From NCBI GenBank assembly GCA_048940925.1, contig JBHLOC010000008.1, forward strand, positions 1-64,000: a DNA stretch of 64,000 bases, in the 5' to 3' direction. Below the pieces are notes generated by a model. It saw only the letters and a list, made by a program, of their open reading frames with translations. It did no database searches and had not been told where the DNA came from. Within the stretch, counting starts at the first letter, position 1; every line of letters starts with the position of its first letter. Below, one piece after another: positions 51,261 to 62,687 of this stretch. The translations under genes and the position numbers were made by a program. The stretch is from Promethearchaeota archaeon. Lineage in GTDB: Archaea > Asgardarchaeota > Lokiarchaeia > Sigyniarchaeales > SOKP01.

Positions 51261-52895
51261 ATGCTATCTGACGACTATTTATTTTCTGACATTGGAATTG
51301 ATTCAATTGGTTTTTATGCTCCAAGGAACTACGTTAGCTTGAAAGAACTCGCATTGGAAAGAAAAGTTGATCCTGCTAAGTATGAGAAAGGACTTCTATC
51401 AAAAGAAATGCGCGTTCCTGAAGTGGATGAAGATATTATTTCTCTTGGATTGAAAGCAGGATATAGCGCATTACAACGAGGTAATATTCCTCCTAAAACC
51501 ATTGATGCATTATTTGTTGGTACTGAAACAGAAGTATATGCTGCGAAGAGTATATCAAATATCTTCGCTGAGATGTTGAATATTTCTCCCAATTCTTTAA
51601 CTCAAGATATCTATAATGCCTGTGCAGGTGGTACACTAGCAATTCTTAATGCAATTGCAATGATTGAAAAAGAAATAATTAACAAAGCTCTTATTATAAG
51701 CGCTGACATCTCATCATATCACCTAGGCTCTCCAGGTGAACCAACACAAGGCTCGGGAGCTATCGCTATGGTAATCTCAAAGGATCCTCGTATAGCATCA
51801 TTCAGTAAAAAGTTTGGAAGGATCTCCGGAAATGTCAATGATTTTTTTAGACCCCCAAATGATAAAAATGCAAGAGCCTTTGGTCAATATTCTCAAGATA
51901 GTTATATTGATTTCCAATTAAAGGCTTACGATGATTTAATTGATAATGCTGGAGATTTTCATGCAGATTTCTATACATTTCATGCTCCTTTTAGTAAATT
52001 ACCTTTAAAAATTATGCAACAAATCATATTGAAACGTTGGATAAAACACATAAGTGATTTACCAAAATTTGAACGAAATAAATTTAGATCCTCAATTTTA
52101 AAGAAAATTGATTCATTTTTACATGATGTAACTGTTTTACCAGAATATATTTACTTAAAACTAAATGAAAGAGGATTTTCTTCCTCCACACTGGAACGAC
52201 TTTCAATGTGGGTGAATACAAATGTTAAAGCACGAGTACTTCCTCAATTACGAGTTCCTATGCATTTTGGTAATATGTACAATGCGAGTGTTTGGGCACA
52301 AATAATTTTTCTTCTAGAGAATCATGTTCATGCTAATGATATAATTTATTTTGGATCTTACGGCTCCGGAGCAACATGTATTTCAGGTTTATTAAAAGTC
52401 CAAGATGATTACAATGATGTTGTCCAAAATGGTCCGAAAATAAATGATTTCATTCATTTAAAGAAGAAGAAATCAGTATTAGAATATGAACTTATAAAAA
52501 ACGGAGATGTAAAGCCAATAGTTTTATTAGGAAAGATTGCTGAGCACGAACAAAACAATCATAGGGGTTTTACACTCCATTTTTGTGATGAGGGATGTAT
52601 TATTCCGAACATAAAAGGATTAGATCGTTGTCCTAAAGGTCATACAGGCTACCATGAAAGATTTTTTCCACTTTTTGCTAAACTGACCTCTGACCCTATT
52701 GCTCAAAATGATATTGAGGACCTTAGTTATCTAAATAAAGGCCTTGTAAGAGTAGCAAGTAATGTAAGTAAGGGTAGCTCTCTAGAATATGAAATAAGGA
52801 GAGTTGAAAGAGAATTTGAAGAAAATCTCAATGCTAAAGGGCTCTTAAACTGGACTCCTTTCTATATTAATCTCCCAAATCACCATGTTTACTAG
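51261..52895 (+). CDS. mvaS: HMG-CoA synthase with C-terminal DUF35-like extension
   Basis: VGTE, NACAGG (catalytic Cys), GEPTQGSGA, FHAPF, GNMYNAS and SYGSG motifs. Confidence 0.88.
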   Translation: MLSDDYLFSDIGIDSIGFYAPRNYVSLKELALERKVDPAKYEKGLLSKEMRVPEVDEDIISLGLKAGYSALQRGNIPPKTIDALFVGTETEVYAAKSISNIFAEMLNISPNSLTQDIYNACAGGTLAILNAIAMIEKEIINKALIISADISSYHLGSPGEPTQGSGAIAMVISKDPRIASFSKKFGRISGNVNDFFRPPNDKNARAFGQYSQDSYIDFQLKAYDDLIDNAGDFHADFYTFHAPFSKLPLKIMQQIILKRWIKHISDLPKFERNKFRSSILKKIDSFLHDVTVLPEYIYLKLNERGFSSSTLERLSMWVNTNVKARVLPQLRVPMHFGNMYNASVWAQIIFLLENHVHANDIIYFGSYGSGATCISGLLKVQDDYNDVVQNGPKINDFIHLKKKKSVLEYELIKNGDVKPIVLLGKIAEHEQNNHRGFTLHFCDEGCIIPNIKGLDRCPKGHTGYHERFFPLFAKLTSDPIAQNDIEDLSYLNKGLVRVASNVSKGSSLEYEIRRVEREFEENLNAKGLLNWTPFYINLPNHHVY

Positions 52896-52997
52896 AATTT
52901 ATCCAGTTTTTTACCTGTATTGAATCTACAAAAGGTAAAGTAAAGTGTAAGAAAATTTAGACAAAACTTATTAAATTTTTGAATTTATGAAAAATTA

Positions 52998-54278
52998 ATG
53001 AAAGATTTTCATTCAGATATTTCTGGGTTTTATAAATTATCAATTGATGAACGTCTAAAATTATTATCTGAACTTATTAATTTAAGTCAAGATGAAATTG
53101 AAATACTAAAGACATTAGGTTATTTTACATCAACTCAGATTGATACATTAATCGAGAATGTAGTAGGAAGCTATCAGTTACCATTTGGTCTTGCCTTTAA
53201 CTTTAGAATTAATAACAGAGACTATATCATACCCATGGTTATTGAAGAACCTTCGGTGGTGGCAGCTGCTTCAAATGCTGCTAAAATGGCCCGAGAGCAT
53301 GGTGGATTTCACTCAGAGGAGGTAAAATCAGTAATGATCTCTCAGATTCAAATAACTCAAATTCAAGATATTGAGTATGTACGACAGCAAATTTTAAATA
53401 ACAAAGACCAAATCTTAAAAATCGCCAACGAACAAGATCCTTTATTAAATAAATTAGGTGGTGGTGCACTTGATCTTGAACTTCGAGAGTTAGATACAAA
53501 TAGAGGTAAGATGATGATAATTCATTTATTGGTTAATGTTCTAGATGCCATGGGCGCCAACATAGTTAACACAATGGCAGAAGCTATAAGCCCTTTTATT
53601 GAAGAAATCACAGAAGGAAAAATTTATTTGCGAATTTTATCGAATCTAGCTACTCATCGAATTGCTAAGAGTAAAGCAACTTTTGATAAAGAGTTATTAG
53701 GGGGAGAAGAAGTAGTGGAAGGAATACTAAATGCTTATGAATTTGCTTTAGCTGATCCATATCGTGCGACCACTCATAATAAAGGAATAATGAATGGTAT
53801 TATTGCCTTAACATTAGCAACTGGAAATGATACTCGCGCTATTGAATCAGGTGCTCATGCATTTGCCTCTTTGAGTGGAAAGTACTCTCCGTTAACTAAA
53901 TTCGGATTAGATTCAAAAGGAAATTTAGTTGGAGAAATTGAGCTACCTCTTGCTTTAGGAATTGTTGGAGGTATGACAAAAATACATCCTATGGCACGAC
54001 TAGCTTTAAAAATATTAAATGTACAAAGTGCGAATGAGCTCTCACAGGTGGGTGCTGCTCTTGGTTTGGCACAAAATGTGGCAGCTTTAAGAGCCTTAGC
54101 AGCAGAAGGTATTCAAAAGGGTCATATGGCACTCCATTCTCGTAATATTGCAAAAGTCGCAGGAGTACCTGATAAATTAGTAGAGAGAGTTGCCAAAAAA
54201 ATGATAGAAGAGAAAAAAATAAGAGTTGATTATGCAAGAGAAATTTTACAAAAAATAAATGATGATGAAAACCTTTAG
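52998..54278 (+). CDS. mvaA: HMG-CoA reductase (class II type)
   Basis: ENVVG, EEPSVVAAAS, DAMGAN, RATTHNKG and GIQKGHM motifs. Confidence 0.93.
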   Translation: MKDFHSDISGFYKLSIDERLKLLSELINLSQDEIEILKTLGYFTSTQIDTLIENVVGSYQLPFGLAFNFRINNRDYIIPMVIEEPSVVAAASNAAKMAREHGGFHSEEVKSVMISQIQITQIQDIEYVRQQILNNKDQILKIANEQDPLLNKLGGGALDLELRELDTNRGKMMIIHLLVNVLDAMGANIVNTMAEAISPFIEEITEGKIYLRILSNLATHRIAKSKATFDKELLGGEEVVEGILNAYEFALADPYRATTHNKGIMNGIIALTLATGNDTRAIESGAHAFASLSGKYSPLTKFGLDSKGNLVGEIELPLALGIVGGMTKIHPMARLALKILNVQSANELSQVGAALGLAQNVAALRALAAEGIQKGHMALHSRNIAKVAGVPDKLVERVAKKMIEEKKIRVDYAREILQKINDDENL

Positions 54279-54359
54279 TTTTATAAAAAGTGGTTCTGTA
54301 ACTCCTCTAAGAAAAACCACAATTATTATTCATATTATCAAGATAACCATGTATAGAAG

Positions 54360-55670
54360 ATGAGTTATATGGGATTTAGAGAATATATAAATAAAATAGA
54401 TAAAGAAGGAATACTCCGAAAGGTGGATGTAGAAGTTTCCAAAAGACTAGAAATTGCTGGTATTTTGAAAGAGATTGAACCAACTCCCGTAATATTTAAT
54501 AATATAAGAGAATCTGATTTTCGTGTTGTAGGTAATGTGTTCTGTACTAAGAATGTTATTGCTTCATATTTCGGTGTGACTCCTGCAGATCTCATACCAA
54601 TGCTTTCAAAAGCAATAACAGAACGTTCTGAACCGGAAATCGTATCTAATGCCCCTTGTCAAGAAGTGATCGAATCAAGTGTAGATTTAGATAAAATACC
54701 CATTTTATTTCATTGTGAAAAAGATGGTGGAAACTACATTAGTTCTGCAGTTGTTGTAACCAGAGATCCGGATTATGGGCAAAACTTAGATTTTCATCGA
54801 GCAATGCAATATTCTAAAGACAAATTTGCTACTCGAATAGTCAAAGGACGCCACTTTTATAAATTTTTAGAAAAAAATGGCGAAGTAGAAGTTGCATATT
54901 GTGTAGGTAATACCCCCAACATTCTGATAGCCGGAGCTACGTCTGTAGATATTGGTGTTGATGAATTACACATTGCTAATGCACTAGAACCAATTAAAGT
55001 TGTAAAGGCAAATTCAGTGGATCTTATAATACCCGCAGAAGCTGAGTTTGTATTAGAAGGTCGTGTTTACTTTGAAGAAAGACATGTTGAAGGTCCTTTT
55101 ATTGATCTGACTGAAACATATGATGTAATTAGAGAAGAACCTATTTTTGAAGTTAAGAGAATTACTCATAGAAAAGATGCGATTTGGCAAGCCTTATTAC
55201 CAGGAGCACTTGAACATAAAATATTAATGGGTATGCCTAGGGAACCCACTATTTTCAATAAAGTAAATGAAGCAGGAGTTAAGTGTTTGGATGTAAATAT
55301 TAGTCCTGGTGGGTCTTCTTGGTTGCATGCAATAGTCCAAATTGATAAAAAATCAGAAGAAGATGGAAGAAAGGCAATTGAAGGAACTTTTGCAGGGCAT
55401 ACAAGCTGTAAACATGCTTTTATTGTCGATAAAGATATTAATATCTATGATCCTTTATCAGTAGAATGGGCGATGGCGACTCGTTTTCAAGGAGATACTA
55501 GAATGATTGTGAAAGATAAAGAACCAGGTAGCAGTTTAGACCCAAGCGCGGAACCTGGAACAAAAATGACCACAAAAATTGGTTTTGATTTAACAAAACC
55601 TTTGGTTGTGAAAGGGAAAAGTTTTGACATTGCAGAGTTTCCTAAAGTAGATATTAATAAATATTTTTAA
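54360..55670 (+). CDS. UbiD-family prFMN decarboxylase, likely anhydromevalonate-phosphate decarboxylase
   Basis: EGPFID, VEWAMATR and GSSLDPS motifs; located in the MVA operon next to aconitase X. Confidence 0.85.
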   Translation: MSYMGFREYINKIDKEGILRKVDVEVSKRLEIAGILKEIEPTPVIFNNIRESDFRVVGNVFCTKNVIASYFGVTPADLIPMLSKAITERSEPEIVSNAPCQEVIESSVDLDKIPILFHCEKDGGNYISSAVVVTRDPDYGQNLDFHRAMQYSKDKFATRIVKGRHFYKFLEKNGEVEVAYCVGNTPNILIAGATSVDIGVDELHIANALEPIKVVKANSVDLIIPAEAEFVLEGRVYFEERHVEGPFIDLTETYDVIREEPIFEVKRITHRKDAIWQALLPGALEHKILMGMPREPTIFNKVNEAGVKCLDVNISPGGSSWLHAIVQIDKKSEEDGRKAIEGTFAGHTSCKHAFIVDKDINIYDPLSVEWAMATRFQGDTRMIVKDKEPGSSLDPSAEPGTKMTTKIGFDLTKPLVVKGKSFDIAEFPKVDINKYF

Positions 55671-55688
55671 TATTGGAGTAGTTGGAAA

Positions 55689-56882
55689 ATGAAATTAACA
55701 TCTGAAGAACAGGATATGTTAGAGGGCAAGTATGGAAAAGCTGCTAAAAAATCAATGGAAATTTTAACCACACTGGGGGAAATATTTGATGCAGAGGATA
55801 TGATCGATATAGTTGGTGTTCAGATAGCAGGCGTCTCTTATGATAATCTTGGTGAAGCAGGATTAGAATTTTTGAGTGAAATGGCAGAAGATGGTAAAAT
55901 TCGCGTTTTAACCACCTTAAATCCTGCTGGAATGGATCGTGAAAATTGGCAAAGGTTAGGTATTGATGAAGAATTTGCCAAAAACCAAAATCGTGCTATA
56001 GATGCATTTGCTAAAATGGGTATAATTACCACCTGTTCTTGTACTCCATACTTAATTGGAATTAGCCCACATTATGGACAACATCTCGCTTGGGCAGAGA
56101 GTAGTGCTGTATGTTATGCAAATTCTGTTATTGGCGCTCGAACTAATCGTGAAGGAGGGCCAAGCGCATTGGCATCAGCATTAACAGGAAAAACACCTAG
56201 ATATGGTTATCACTTGGATGAAAATCGCCACGGGCAAGTTTTAATCAAAGTGAATACTTCTGTTAATGGAACTGATGAATTTGGAGTTCTTGGAAAAATT
56301 ATTGGTGATAAATTGGGGGAATTAGGCAAAAAAATTCCCTATATAATTGGAATTCTAGCAGCTACTGTTGAAGAACTTAAGTCCTTTTGTGCATCTGTTG
56401 CTACTTATGGTGGAACAGCTTTGTTTCATATGGAGGGTATTACTCCCGAGTCTGAAAAATATCCCAAACCAAGTGATACCGTTTTTGAAATAAATCAATC
56501 TGATTTAGAAAAAACGCGAACTGAACTTATTGATGAAGATAGCGAAATTGATTTTGTCAGTATTGGTTGTCCTCACGCCTCAATCCATGAAATCGCAACA
56601 ATCGCAAATTTATTAGAAGGCAAGAAAGTAAAGAAAGAATTTTGGATAACTACTGCTCGACCAACAAAGAAAATTGCTGATGAAGCTGGGTATTCCAAAA
56701 TTATTGAAGAAGCAGGAGCGAAATTTGCAGCAGATACATGTTGTGTAGTAGCTCCTATTAAAGGACGTTTTAAAGGAATTATGGTAGATTCAGCTAAAGC
56801 ATGTTATTATGGTCGTGCAAGAAATAAATTTAAAGTAAAAATTGGCACAGTTGAAGAATGTGTTGAGGAGGCAACAAAATGA
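55689..56882 (+). CDS. Aconitase X catalytic subunit (phosphomevalonate dehydratase large subunit)
   Basis: CSCTPY, WAESSA, GARTNREGG, IGCPH and DTCCVV motifs. Confidence 0.9.
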   Translation: MKLTSEEQDMLEGKYGKAAKKSMEILTTLGEIFDAEDMIDIVGVQIAGVSYDNLGEAGLEFLSEMAEDGKIRVLTTLNPAGMDRENWQRLGIDEEFAKNQNRAIDAFAKMGIITTCSCTPYLIGISPHYGQHLAWAESSAVCYANSVIGARTNREGGPSALASALTGKTPRYGYHLDENRHGQVLIKVNTSVNGTDEFGVLGKIIGDKLGELGKKIPYIIGILAATVEELKSFCASVATYGGTALFHMEGITPESEKYPKPSDTVFEINQSDLEKTRTELIDEDSEIDFVSIGCPHASIHEIATIANLLEGKKVKKEFWITTARPTKKIADEAGYSKIIEEAGAKFAADTCCVVAPIKGRFKGIMVDSAKACYYGRARNKFKVKIGTVEECVEEATK

Positions 56883-57271
56883 AGTTACAAGGAAGAAAAA
56901 TATATAATGGAATAGTTGAGGCAGAAGCTCTAGTAACTAAGGATGGTATTTCATTTTATGGAGGGGTTGATCCTGATACTGGTAAGGTAGTCGAAGTTGG
57001 TCATGAACTTGAAGGTCAATCAGTCTCAGGAAAGGTCTTAGTATTTCCAACCGGTAAAGGTTCCACAGTAGGATCATATACAATGTATCGAATGATGAAA
57101 AACAATACTGCACCAGCTGCTATCGTAAATGAACAAATAGATACCATTATAGCCGTCGGGTGTATAATTAGTGAAATTCCTTGTGTGGACAAAATTAATA
57201 TTGATGACATAAAAACAGGTCAAAAACTCGTTGTCAATGGTTCAGATGGAACAATTGAATTAATAGATTAG
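56879..57271 (+). CDS. Aconitase X swivel subunit (phosphomevalonate dehydratase small subunit)
   Basis: ISFYGGVDP and GKGSTVGS motifs; ATGA overlap with the large subunit. Confidence 0.9.
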   Translation: MKLQGRKIYNGIVEAEALVTKDGISFYGGVDPDTGKVVEVGHELEGQSVSGKVLVFPTGKGSTVGSYTMYRMMKNNTAPAAIVNEQIDTIIAVGCIISEIPCVDKINIDDIKTGQKLVVNGSDGTIELID

Positions 57272-57278
57272 TTTTATT

Positions 57279-58298
57279 TTGATATTAATGAAATCTTCTG
57301 CAATTGCCCATTCAAATATAGCGTTGATAAAATATTGGGGTCATTGGGATAAAGTTTCCCCCGAATTAAATATACCTTTAAATGATAGCGTAAGCATGAC
57401 AAAATATGGGCTATCAGAAAATACTCACTTACAAGCTCATACAACAATTGAATTCTCAGAGAATTTCAAAGAAAATCAGGCAATATTAAATAATAACCTT
57501 TTGAAAGGAAGAGATTTAGAAAGAATATTAAAAATCATAAATCCATTAAAAAAACTGAAAAAAATTGATTACAATTTTAAAATGGTGAGTTTTAATGATT
57601 TTCCCACCCAAGCAGGTCTAGCATCTTCCGCAGCTGGGTTTGCTGCACTTACCATTGCCACTGCAAAAGCTTTGGATTTGGATCTAGCCCAAAAAGAATT
57701 ATCAACATTTGCTAGATTAGGTTCTGGTTCTGCAGCACGCTCAATTCATGGTGGGTTTGTATATTGGCATCGTGGTTTCTCCCATGAGACTTCTTATACT
57801 GAGCAGATATGTAGTTCAGAACACTTTGATATAAATGCAGTTATTGCAATAGTTGATGAAGGAAGAAAGGATGTCACCTCTGACCTTGGACATGAATTAG
57901 CAAAGACAAGTATATTTAATGCAATTCGAGTTAAAAAATCGCATGAAGAAGCTAAAGAAATTAAGAGTGCAATTCTAGACGATGATTTTAAGAAAGTTGG
58001 AATGATTGCTGAGAAAAATTGCTTATATATGCATGCTGTAATGATGACTTCTGAACCCGCTTTATTTTATTGGAATCCACTTACTTTAAAAGTAATAAAG
58101 AAAGTGTTGTATATACGAAAATCAGAAAAAATAGATTGCTTCTTTACAATCGATGCAGGTCCAAATGTACATTGTTTTTGCAGACCAGAAAATATTGATT
58201 GTATTCAAAAAATGCTAGGATCTATAGAAGGTATTGAAAAAACTATCCTTATAAAACCTGCTAATGATTCTTATCCGACAAATGAACATTTGTTTTAA
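57279..58298 (+). CDS. mvaD: (Di)phosphomevalonate decarboxylase, GHMP family
   Basis: NIALIKYWG, PTQAGLASSAAG, GSGSAARS and TIDAGPNVH motifs. Confidence 0.88.
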   Translation: MILMKSSAIAHSNIALIKYWGHWDKVSPELNIPLNDSVSMTKYGLSENTHLQAHTTIEFSENFKENQAILNNNLLKGRDLERILKIINPLKKLKKIDYNFKMVSFNDFPTQAGLASSAAGFAALTIATAKALDLDLAQKELSTFARLGSGSAARSIHGGFVYWHRGFSHETSYTEQICSSEHFDINAVIAIVDEGRKDVTSDLGHELAKTSIFNAIRVKKSHEEAKEIKSAILDDDFKKVGMIAEKNCLYMHAVMMTSEPALFYWNPLTLKVIKKVLYIRKSEKIDCFFTIDAGPNVHCFCRPENIDCIQKMLGSIEGIEKTILIKPANDSYPTNEHLF

Positions 58299-58441
58299 AA
58301 ATATACATAATTAGTATCTCTCTGATCCAACTGTTCAAATAAAATTAAAAATTATCAAAATAAGTTATAGGTTAAGAAATTTAAATAGATTTGAATATTT
58401 TCAAATTTTATCATATCATACAAAATTAATTGGTGAAAAAT

Positions 58442-59408
58442 TTGGGAACTGGAAAAGGCTTTGGAAAGACCATACTTTTTGGCGAAATTTTATCCCTCTT
58501 TCAGGTATAAACGCAAACATTTTGTAGTGTATGGCTTACCAGCAATTGCTTCAGCATTAAGTTCTTTTACTACAGCTAAAGTAAAAGTTGTTAAAGGAAA
58601 TGGTTGGGTGGTTGATGATCAAAGACCTGCTACACCTGGATATAAGGAACAAAAATATAATGATGCTATGCAATCTATTGTAAATGTGATTCAGCATTTA
58701 AACATTGATTCGGAGAATCAAAAACTTGAAATAACTTTTGCTGGTGACTTAATAGCTGCGAGTGGTGTCGGTGCATCGGCAGCTCAATGTACTTCTTTAG
58801 CTCGTGCAATAAATAATACTTTTAATCTAAACCTAAATAATGAAGAGATTAACGAAGCAGCATATGAAGGAGAGAAAGCATATCATGGGACGCCATCAGG
58901 AATTGATAATACAGCTTCTACATATGGTGGTTTGATTTGGTTCATTAAGAATTTAAGCGGTGGAAAGAATAAGATGGATTTACTACAATCACCAAAAAGG
59001 ATCCCCCTTGTGATCGGGAATACTGGAATAACTGCCTCGACTACAGAGGTTGTTTCGGATGTAAGAAGCCAAAAAGAAGAAAATCCAGAAAAGTATGAGA
59101 AAATCTTTAATGACTATAAAATATTAGCAACTAAAGCAAAGGATGCGTTATTAAGGGGTGATATCAATGAGATTGGAAGACTTATGAATCAAAATCATAA
59201 ATTATTACAAGATATAACCGTATCTGGAGAATTAAATGATAAATTAGTGGATGTAGCACTTAAAAATGGTGCTGTTGGTGCAAAAATGACTGGAACTGGA
59301 CGTGGAGGCTTGATAATAGCATTAGCTGAAAATGAAGAAATACAAGGGCAAATAGCAAATGCAATCAAGAGAGAGGGATATGATGCTTGGGAAACTATGA
59401 TTGGATGA
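58442..59408 (+). CDS. mvk: Mevalonate kinase, interrupted by a 31-nt insert (311 aa if spliced)
   Basis: RBS GGTGA, then TTG 58442 gives MGTGKGFGKTILFGE; resumes in another frame at 58518 as HFVVYG; GVGASAA, HGTPSGID and GAKMTGTGRGG motifs. Confidence 0.88.
58487..58517 (+). other. Candidate bulge-helix-bulge-type mRNA intron
   Basis: ATTTTATCCCTCTTTCAGGTATAAACGCAAA; carries an in-frame TAA; removal restores GEHFVVYG; ends form a BHB-like motif. Confidence 0.65.
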
Positions 59409-59457: not shown

Positions 59458-60162
59458 ATGAATGATCTCGACCTTGATATTCGACCAATCACTATGGACG
59501 AATGGTTACCAGATCGTTGTCTCGGAGGTGGCAAACCAATTGATCCTTCCAAACTCACACTTCAAGCTGGCTGCACCAGTCTTTGCTTGTTCTATACCGC
59601 TACCGCACTAGGGATATCACGTCAAGAATCACTTACTCAACCAGCAGATGAAATTAAGAAAAAGGCTGATCGAGAACCTGCATGTCGTAGCATGTTGGTT
59701 GAATTATATCGTGAAACAATCGAAAAACATGGAGGTTGTGGTTTTGTTGCTTGGTATGAAGGTAAAATCGTAGGGTACCATAATTTCTTCCCTCGGAATA
59801 TTGCACGCAGGATTAAGTTCTTTGGTTGGGGAGAAGATATTGACAGTTCTAAACTAACACTCATACACAATTGCATTACCCATATACGTGGAGATTACCG
59901 TCGTAAGAAGATTGGAACACGACTTGCCCGGACATCCTTGACATGGGCGAAAGAAAACGGATGGGAACGGTTTGAGGTACATCTTGTACTCCCGGACGTT
60001 GAAAATGGTTTCCGCAATGAGCAAAAGTCATGTCGTACCTTCTGGGAAAAACTGGGATTGACGGTATTTAGAACATTTTCTTCAGATGAAGAAACACAAA
60101 AAGTTTATGGTGTACCAGTCCGACACTCTATGGCGGTTGATCTGACAACGTGGAAACCCTGA
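59458..60162 (+). CDS. GNAT-fold acetyltransferase
   Basis: GFVAWYEGKIVG, YRRKKIGTRL and FWEKLG motifs; visibly more GC-rich than neighbours. Confidence 0.75.
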   Translation: MNDLDLDIRPITMDEWLPDRCLGGGKPIDPSKLTLQAGCTSLCLFYTATALGISRQESLTQPADEIKKKADREPACRSMLVELYRETIEKHGGCGFVAWYEGKIVGYHNFFPRNIARRIKFFGWGEDIDSSKLTLIHNCITHIRGDYRRKKIGTRLARTSLTWAKENGWERFEVHLVLPDVENGFRNEQKSCRTFWEKLGLTVFRTFSSDEETQKVYGVPVRHSMAVDLTTWKP

Positions 60163-61319: not shown

Positions 61320-62687
61320 GTGAAATTATTTATTATTACAAATAACCAAATTGAGGAAATTCAAAAACTAATAAAAATAGAAATTGACTCCTATTACTCC
61401 AAATGTAAAAAACCTAATAGTTATTCTCAGATAGCTAAAGATCTCGGATTTAGCCCTCCGACTATTCGTAAATATGCAAAGAGATATTTAATTAGAGAAT
61501 ATGGAGAAAATGGTGGTTTAGAATTATACAATCAATACAAAAAGTTAAGTCGTAAAACACCAAATAAATGGACTTATGAGTATTTACAGGAATTAGCAAA
61601 AAGAAGAGGATTAGAAGAAAATAACATTGAAGGAAAGTTAATTACAACTAAAGATGAATTTTTCGAATCTATAAAAAGTCAATATCCAAGTGGTGTTAAG
61701 TTAAAATGGTGGTGTGGAAAAAAAAATCATGACCCATGGGAAACTTCTGGGAGTGAGGTAAAACGTAGTTGGTGTCCTAGATGTTTTAGAGAAAGAGTGA
61801 GCTTTTCATATAGTTATCTACATGCTTTAGCAAAAAAAAGAGGTTTTGAAGAAACTCGAATCGAAGGGATACTTATTACAAATAGGAAAGAATTCGCAAG
61901 ACTAATAAAAAAAGGTATCGAGCCAAGTAAAATAAAATTAAAATGGTGTTGTTGCATAAAAGATCATAATCCTTGGGAAGCTTCAGCTAAAGATATAAAA
62001 GGATATAACTCAAGAAAAGGATCTTGGTGCCCTAGATGTGCTATAGAAAAGAATAGTCTTTCATATGAAGACCTACGAGCTCTAGCCAAGAAAAGGGGCA
62101 TTGAAGAGACAGGAATAAAAGGAACGCTTATTACTAGTAAGCAAAAGTTCGAGAAATTAGCAAAAAGAGGTACTGAGCCAAGTAAAACAAAACTAAAGTG
62201 GTGGTGCTGTAATAAAGATCATGAACCATGGAAAGCTACTCCTAATAGCATAAGCAGAGGGACTTGGTGTCCGTATTGTTCACAAGGTAAGTATGAAAGG
62301 ATTTGTCGCCGTTTTTTCCAGATAATATTTAAAGAGAAATTTCGGAAAATTTCGTTATCAAATTTAATTAAGGATAGCGATATAAAAATGCACTTAGATG
62401 GGTATGCTAAAGTAAACATTCATGGTAAATTGATAAAACTAGCCTTTGAATACAATGGATATCAACATTACATATGGCCCAATGTGTACCATAACACTGT
62501 ACAAAAATTCCTTGAACAGCAAGACCGAGATATTCTAAAAAGAAAAATATGTGAAGAAAATGGAATCATTCTAATCGAGTTTCCATATAAGATAAGTCCT
62601 AGGATGAAAGAACCTGAAAAAATAAAGAATTTTATCATTAGTGGATTTGAGAATAAAACAGGTATAAAATTACCAAAATTACAATAA
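61320..62687 (+). CDS. HTH, three zinc-ribbon repeats and C-terminal Vsr/PD-(D/E)xK-like endonuclease
   Basis: SYSQIAKDLGFSPPTIRKY; 3x KLKW.C...H.PW...WCP.C; LDGY...FEYNGYQHY...DILKRKICEENGIILIEFPY. Confidence 0.75.
   Translation: MKLFIITNNQIEEIQKLIKIEIDSYYSKCKKPNSYSQIAKDLGFSPPTIRKYAKRYLIREYGENGGLELYNQYKKLSRKTPNKWTYEYLQELAKRRGLEENNIEGKLITTKDEFFESIKSQYPSGVKLKWWCGKKNHDPWETSGSEVKRSWCPRCFRERVSFSYSYLHALAKKRGFEETRIEGILITNRKEFARLIKKGIEPSKIKLKWCCCIKDHNPWEASAKDIKGYNSRKGSWCPRCAIEKNSLSYEDLRALAKKRGIEETGIKGTLITSKQKFEKLAKRGTEPSKTKLKWWCCNKDHEPWKATPNSISRGTWCPYCSQGKYERICRRFFQIIFKEKFRKISLSNLIKDSDIKMHLDGYAKVNIHGKLIKLAFEYNGYQHYIWPNVYHNTVQKFLEQQDRDILKRKICEENGIILIEFPYKISPRMKEPEKIKNFIISGFENKTGIKLPKLQ

Follow-up and report, generated by a model that had tools for sequence, protein, structure and literature searches.

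Splicing of archaeal protein-coding transcripts by the tRNA splicing endonuclease (EndA) has been documented inside a coding sequence, among the papers we could search, only for the cbf5 pre-mRNA of Crenarchaeota (Watanabe 2002; Yoshinari 2006; Yokobori 2009, PMC2738675). The cbf5 introns are short (16-44 nt) and ORF-less, lie at a catalytic motif, show patchy gain and loss, and are released from an unconventional bulge-helix-bulge (BHB) motif by a hetero-oligomeric EndA that cuts between the second and third bases of each bulge. The only other archaeal mRNA substrate that we found is the BHB intron in the 5'UTR of HVO_1309 of Haloferax volcanii, which lies outside the coding sequence and was verified by circRNA-seq and in vitro (PMC7714728). 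In Asgard archaea, non-canonical BHB-type introns with repeated gains on an (αβ)2 EndA background have been described for tRNA genes in a 2026 preprint that does not mention mRNA and that names the route of intron arrival as the central open problem (bioRxiv 10.64898/2026.10.13.758758). A mechanism for the spread of ORF-less introns is, on the other hand, known from phages: in the collaborative homing of T3/T7-like phages and cyanophage S-PM2, and in trans homing by T4 mobE, a free-standing endonuclease gene lies next to an ORF-less group I intron and flanking exon sequence is co-converted (PMC2988022, PMC10448857, PMC2790892).

Here we analyze a 31-nt insert in the mevalonate kinase gene (mvk) of a Loki-type Asgard archaeon, within a window that comprises the whole analyzed stretch of 64,000 nucleotides of contig JBHLOC010000008.1 (assembly GCA_048940925.1). 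A sequence-only reading had proposed that this insert is a BHB-spliced mRNA intron, and the anatomy it described was confirmed. The TTG start opens MGTGKGFGKTILFGE, the insert follows, and HFVVYG resumes in another frame. An exhaustive test of all deletions of 1-79 nt found only three that restore the GEH motif with an open frame; all three are 31 nt long and equivalent (58485-515, 58486-516 and 58487-517), and yield a protein of 311 aa. The slide of up to 2 nt that the sequence-only reading had conceded is removed by relatives whose inserts end in AT, AG or AC. The insert is bridged without gaps by contigs of four runs from four studies and is hence not an assembly slip, although these are contigs rather than raw reads and one may be the source sample. 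The features of the locus are collected in Table 1.

Table 1. Features of the mvk locus and its surroundings (window coordinates).
Position	Strand	Feature	Supporting observation
51261..58298	+	Upstream mevalonate gene cluster: HMG-CoA synthase, HMG-CoA reductase, UbiD, AcnX large and small subunits, (di)phosphomevalonate decarboxylase	
57279..58298	+	(Di)phosphomevalonate decarboxylase gene between acnX2 and mvk	Found in this position in 20 loci, all intron-bearing and with the cassette-type spacer
58299..58441	+	143-nt spacer with RBS GGTGA (58432-36), homologous to the spacer between the HNH gene and mvk in cassette-bearing relatives	Aligns over about 135 nt to the spacer of locus L196; score above all 500 GC-matched genomic controls for 4 of 5 cassette spacers
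58442..58486	+	mvk exon 1 (TTG start, codons 1-15), with K9 and E15 of GHMP motif 1	K9/E15/H16 align with L. major MK K18/E24/H25 (PMC1851959); dN/dS 0.12
58461..58517	+	Artefactual N-terminus of the 315-aa ORF call	Same artefact in about 40 database proteins
58466..58475	+	5' arm of the exon-exon helix (CCAUAC at 58470-75)	8.4 of 9 positions pair in 53 insert-bearing genes vs 5.6 in 30 insert-free genes
58480 and 58519	+	U-A pair outside the central helix	
58481..58487	+	Central helix 5' strand GGCG (58481-84) and 5' bulge AA^A (predicted cut 58486/58487)	
58487..58517	+	31-nt relaxed-BHB intron with internal hairpin (58488-58511) and in-frame stop TAA (58508-10)	
58512..58518	+	Central helix 3' strand CGCA (58512-15) and 3' bulge AA^C (predicted cut 58517/58518)	C-G to U-A compensatory change in 3 relatives, U-G in 1
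58518..59408	+	mvk exon 2 (H16 to stop, 296 codons)	TIGR00549 215 bits, over the cut-off; dN/dS 0.125
58529..58538	+	3' arm of the exon-exon helix (codons 19-22; GUAUGG at 58529-34)	
59458..60162	+	GNAT gene following mvk	
61320..62687	+	455-aa nuclease-like ORF between ubiX and a geranylgeranyl reductase gene	PHROG homing/HNH endonuclease hits, E 2e-20

The interrupted gene ends a mevalonate gene cluster and is the only one in the genome to score above the mevalonate kinase cut-off of TIGR00549 (163 bits), the other GHMP kinases scoring 65-143 bits. The break falls inside motif 1, which is complete only after joining, and the residues of Leishmania mevalonate kinase that align with K9, E15 and H16 are catalytic or substrate-binding (PMC1851959). 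A pseudogene could be entertained because one of the other GHMP kinases reaches 143 bits on the same model, but this reading is very unlikely: of 53 insert-bearing orthologues, 50 have an intact 296-codon exon 2 and the other three are cut by assembly gaps or a contig end, and both exons are under purifying selection at a level close to that of exon 2 in intron-free genes (dN/dS 0.10). The Loki-type affiliation of the host, also put forward by the sequence-only reading, is supported by a profilin matching PDB 5YED at E 5e-66; 5YED is a Loki profilin. NCBI labels of relatives conflict (Hodarchaeota, Thorarchaeota and others), but several Lokiarchaeota labels also favor Lokiarchaeia. This clade of mevalonate kinases is far closer to Leishmania mevalonate kinase (PDB 2HFS, E 2e-75 for the protein of locus L004) than to solved archaeal or bacterial enzymes (E about 1e-28).

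The main support for an intron comes from comparative genomics. An unbiased protein search returned 27 same-genus orthologues, of which 18 carry a 30-31-nt insert at this site and nine do not. Pattern searches over 154 genomes of the order extended the set to 53 genomes with an insert at the identical site (48 of 31 nt, four of 30 nt and one of 28 nt; five genera of one family) and 30 without, and no genome has both forms. Every unspliced reading stops after 16-22 residues, including the 30-nt forms, which are in frame but carry stops. Hence, even though a 315-aa open frame exists and A/U runs are present, frameshifting cannot explain the set, and re-initiation giving the 315-aa product or a truncated kinase is likewise very improbable: the alternative N-termini vary freely and lack the catalytic Lys and Glu of motif 1, whereas exon 1 is conserved at the protein level (pN 0.05). 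Translational bypassing of the T4 gene 60 type, in which the ribosome hops between matched take-off and landing codons, might be suggested by the in-frame stop and the hairpin just after the last codon, but it appears hardly tenable, since the take-off codon GAA is not matched by the last triplets of the inserts (AAT 26, TAT 10, AAA 6, TAA 5, TAG 4, CAA 1, TAC 1) and conserved pairing joins exon 1 to the 3' end of the insert in the geometry that EndA recognizes. Six intron-bearing relatives (L070, L090-L094; L numbers denote individual loci) have ACG at the start codon position and one has CTG, while many use TTG.

The structural elements of the motif are likewise conserved. The central helix comprises four nucleotides flanked by 3-nt bulges or loops on opposite strands; its inner three pairs are standard in 53 of 53 inserts, and the terminal pair is G.A in 32, G.U in 20 and G-C in one. 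On 47 distinct sequences, 88.8% of the cells of the hairpin and central helix are paired, against about 40% in slid controls, and 35 cells change on both sides, against 14.8 in shuffles (0/500), with double-sided changes in seven of nine pairs, indicating that the intron-side helix is kept by structure rather than sequence. As kinship inflates such counts, we also used the tree: an exon-exon helix of at least eight of nine pairs follows intron state in seven of eight independent sister pairs, with none opposite (p 0.016). Synonymous variation at codons 9-22 is halved in insert-bearing genes only (0.61 vs 1.27 bits; elsewhere 1.21 vs 1.22). The 35 pattern-found inserts were selected on TTT GGY GAA, so that constraint at codons 13-15 rests on the 18 protein-found genes, which show the same. 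In intron-free alleles, TTC at codon 11 (20/30) and ATC at codon 13 (15/30) are far above their 14-17% use elsewhere in the gene. On the other hand, the motif is relaxed. It fails the strict canonical hBHBh' definition, because in this genome the terminal pair is G.A and the outer helix has one U-A pair before an internal loop. In ViennaRNA the BHB conformer of this genome lies 2.2 kcal/mol above the MFE, which instead pairs GCGAAAU with exon 2, and it prefers a 4-nt 5' bulge; in most of the 53 copies the BHB conformer is not the MFE (median +1.9 kcal/mol), and RNAalifold prefers a competing helix between exon 1 and exon 2. The region folds only modestly better than shuffles (z -1.75; insert alone, z -2.27). 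The energy model ignores enzyme binding and treats G.A as unpaired, so these results weaken but do not refute the intron reading, which therefore rests on the comparative data and not on this fold alone.

The genome also encodes the machinery that such splicing would require. Of its two EndA paralogues, the alpha subunit keeps the Y/H/K triad, the R and W recognition residues and the K-P-R of the crenarchaeal-specific loop that allows cutting of relaxed motifs (PMC3241643), whereas the non-catalytic beta paralogue lacks the triad Tyr and His, pointing to an (αβ)2-type enzyme with the broad-specificity loop; RtcB is also present. ARAGORN calls introns in 22 of 34 tRNA hits, including inserts of about 30 nt. 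The relaxed nature of the motif leaves room for removal of the insert by a different enzyme, or for its excision from the DNA, but both seem very unlikely. The predicted EndA cuts equal the frame-restoring junction, there are no terminal repeats or target duplication, and a joined junction with intron-type codons was found in none of the JGI contigs searched, nor in any of 80 metagenome loci or four joined proteins that were looked up, the best candidate (protein P0039) proving to be a genomic intron-free allele. A genome scan for the motif alone under relaxed rules gave no excess over shifted controls (241 vs 214-245) and had no power. A strict scan gave seven hits, including the mvk site and a 30-nt in-frame insert with a stop in the switch-I region of an EF-2-like gene of the same genome (contig C32, 27895-27924, minus strand), which has BHB-like ends and recurs at the same site in three other genomes of the genus.

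Taken together, these results support the sequence-only interpretation of an EndA-type mRNA intron with the predicted junction, and we place the probability of this reading at about 0.9. EndA would cut after the second base of each 3-nt bulge, and RtcB would join E15 to H16 to yield the 311-aa kinase. The sequence anatomy, its conservation and covariation, the selection on both exons and the presence of the enzymes are established by the analysis, whereas cleavage and ligation in the cell are inferred from them. The additional suggestion that splicing gates isoprenoid synthesis is not supported, as 30 close relatives lack the intron and its history looks like that of a selfish mobile element; a regulatory switch kept by selection could at most invoke the competing fold, and remains doubtful. 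The element resembles the cbf5 intron in being short and ORF-less, in its unconventional BHB motif and predicted cut positions, in the hetero-oligomeric EndA of its host, in its position at a catalytic motif and in its patchy gain and loss, but it resides in a metabolic gene of an Asgard archaeon and is associated with an HNH cassette and conversion tracts. Literature searches on archaeal or Asgard mRNA introns and homing, in which subscription journals are mostly not covered, found no report of this intron. An obligatory intron in a membrane-lipid pathway enzyme, kept in over 50 Asgard species, would extend protein-gene splicing to the closest prokaryotic relatives of eukaryotes, and it also means that public annotations of these kinases carry false N-termini.

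The distribution of the intron is patchy, and well-supported branches force at least eight changes of state. Allele pairs that are 97-98% identical in the gene body differ in intron state and at 18-31% of exon 1, with the differences concentrated around the junction (14 of 45 nt in exon 1 vs 31 of 891 downstream for L192/L193; L194/L195 are similar), and five of six sister pairs show excess junction divergence (p 0.001-0.04). Some of these mosaics come from low-coverage metagenome contigs. This pattern is that of a conversion tract centered on the intron, and not of the clean deletion expected from cDNA-mediated loss, although L041 looks like a true loss that kept intron-type codons. The intron-bearing loci L195, L196 and L199 nest among intron-free alleles 96-98% identical in the gene body and carry a 420-aa gene between acnX2 and mvk, where their intron-free sisters have the two genes abutting. 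Its product has two invariant CxxC..HH..CxNCH modules, matches PHROG HNH families (E 4e-17) and ends in a winged-helix-like domain, but its Pfam HNH scores are below cut-off, and a fold search with its predicted structure (pLDDT 87) gave only weak MarR-like winged-helix matches (E>0.01). Its best hit among 135 genomes of the family lies before an intron-bearing mvk, and so do all four further orthologues that were looked up (57-77% identity). After de-duplication, this double-HNH gene or its remnant precedes nine intron-bearing loci and none of 55 intron-free loci with known context. Behind acnX2, L196 and L199 keep the old exon 1 up to codon 13 and L224 keeps it to codon 17, while decayed stubs occur in L140, L242, L243, L245 and L136. 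The HNH gene therefore came in a cassette that inserted at the intron site and brought its own spacer, start codon, exon 1 and intron. L224 holds tandem remains (two acnX2 3' ends, two mvk 5' stubs, a divergent decarboxylase-like gene and an HNH remnant upstream of intron-bearing mvk) that point to repeated insertions at this site. In the genome studied here the HNH gene was not found and only the cassette-type spacer remains.

These observations lead us to suggest, as an inference that seems somewhat more likely than not, that the intron is the protective passenger of a mobile cassette composed of a putative double-HNH endonuclease, a spacer with its RBS, a replacement exon 1 with its own start, and the intron. 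In this view, the nuclease would cut intron-free mvk at or near the E15/H16 junction, repair would copy the intron together with flanking exon sequence, and the HNH gene would later decay or be replaced; the present locus would thus descend from the cassette, with a decarboxylase gene now in its place. Intron-bearing loci in which acnX2 abuts mvk without a cassette trace, of which there are 33, could presumably arise by recombination between the stub and the new exon 1, or by local conversion as in L193. The alternative that a single ancient gain was followed by many losses or neutral allele exchange, with the HNH gene a bystander, is possible but less likely: most intron-bearing loci have no HNH gene, but the nesting of L195, L196 and L199 among intron-free alleles, with an old exon-1 stub left behind, shows a recent gain. 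The proposed scheme resembles collaborative homing in phages, but it would operate on a cellular archaeal gene, with an enzyme-spliced BHB intron instead of a group I ribozyme and with a cassette that inserts inside the target gene. If correct, Loki-type Asgard archaea carry a composite selfish element that homes into the active-site codons of an essential metabolic gene and leaves the intron behind when the nuclease decays, which would be a concrete route for intron gain in archaeal protein-coding genes and a testable answer to how such short introns arrive.

The nuclease-like ORF of the window itself, which combines an HTH, repeated Zn-ribbon units and a C-terminal nuclease-like domain, was rejected as the driver of this process, as it is unrelated to the cassette HNH and its homologues are not on mvk contigs elsewhere. 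More distant members of the double-HNH family (L202-L220; 30-40% identity) occur at other sites in 47 of the 135 genomes, and may mobilize other introns. With the decarboxylase gene upstream of mvk, two routes to IPP may coexist here. Downstream of mvk, where this genome has a GNAT gene, relatives have isopentenyl-phosphate-kinase-like genes (PF00696), sometimes fused to an FMN-dependent isomerase-like domain.
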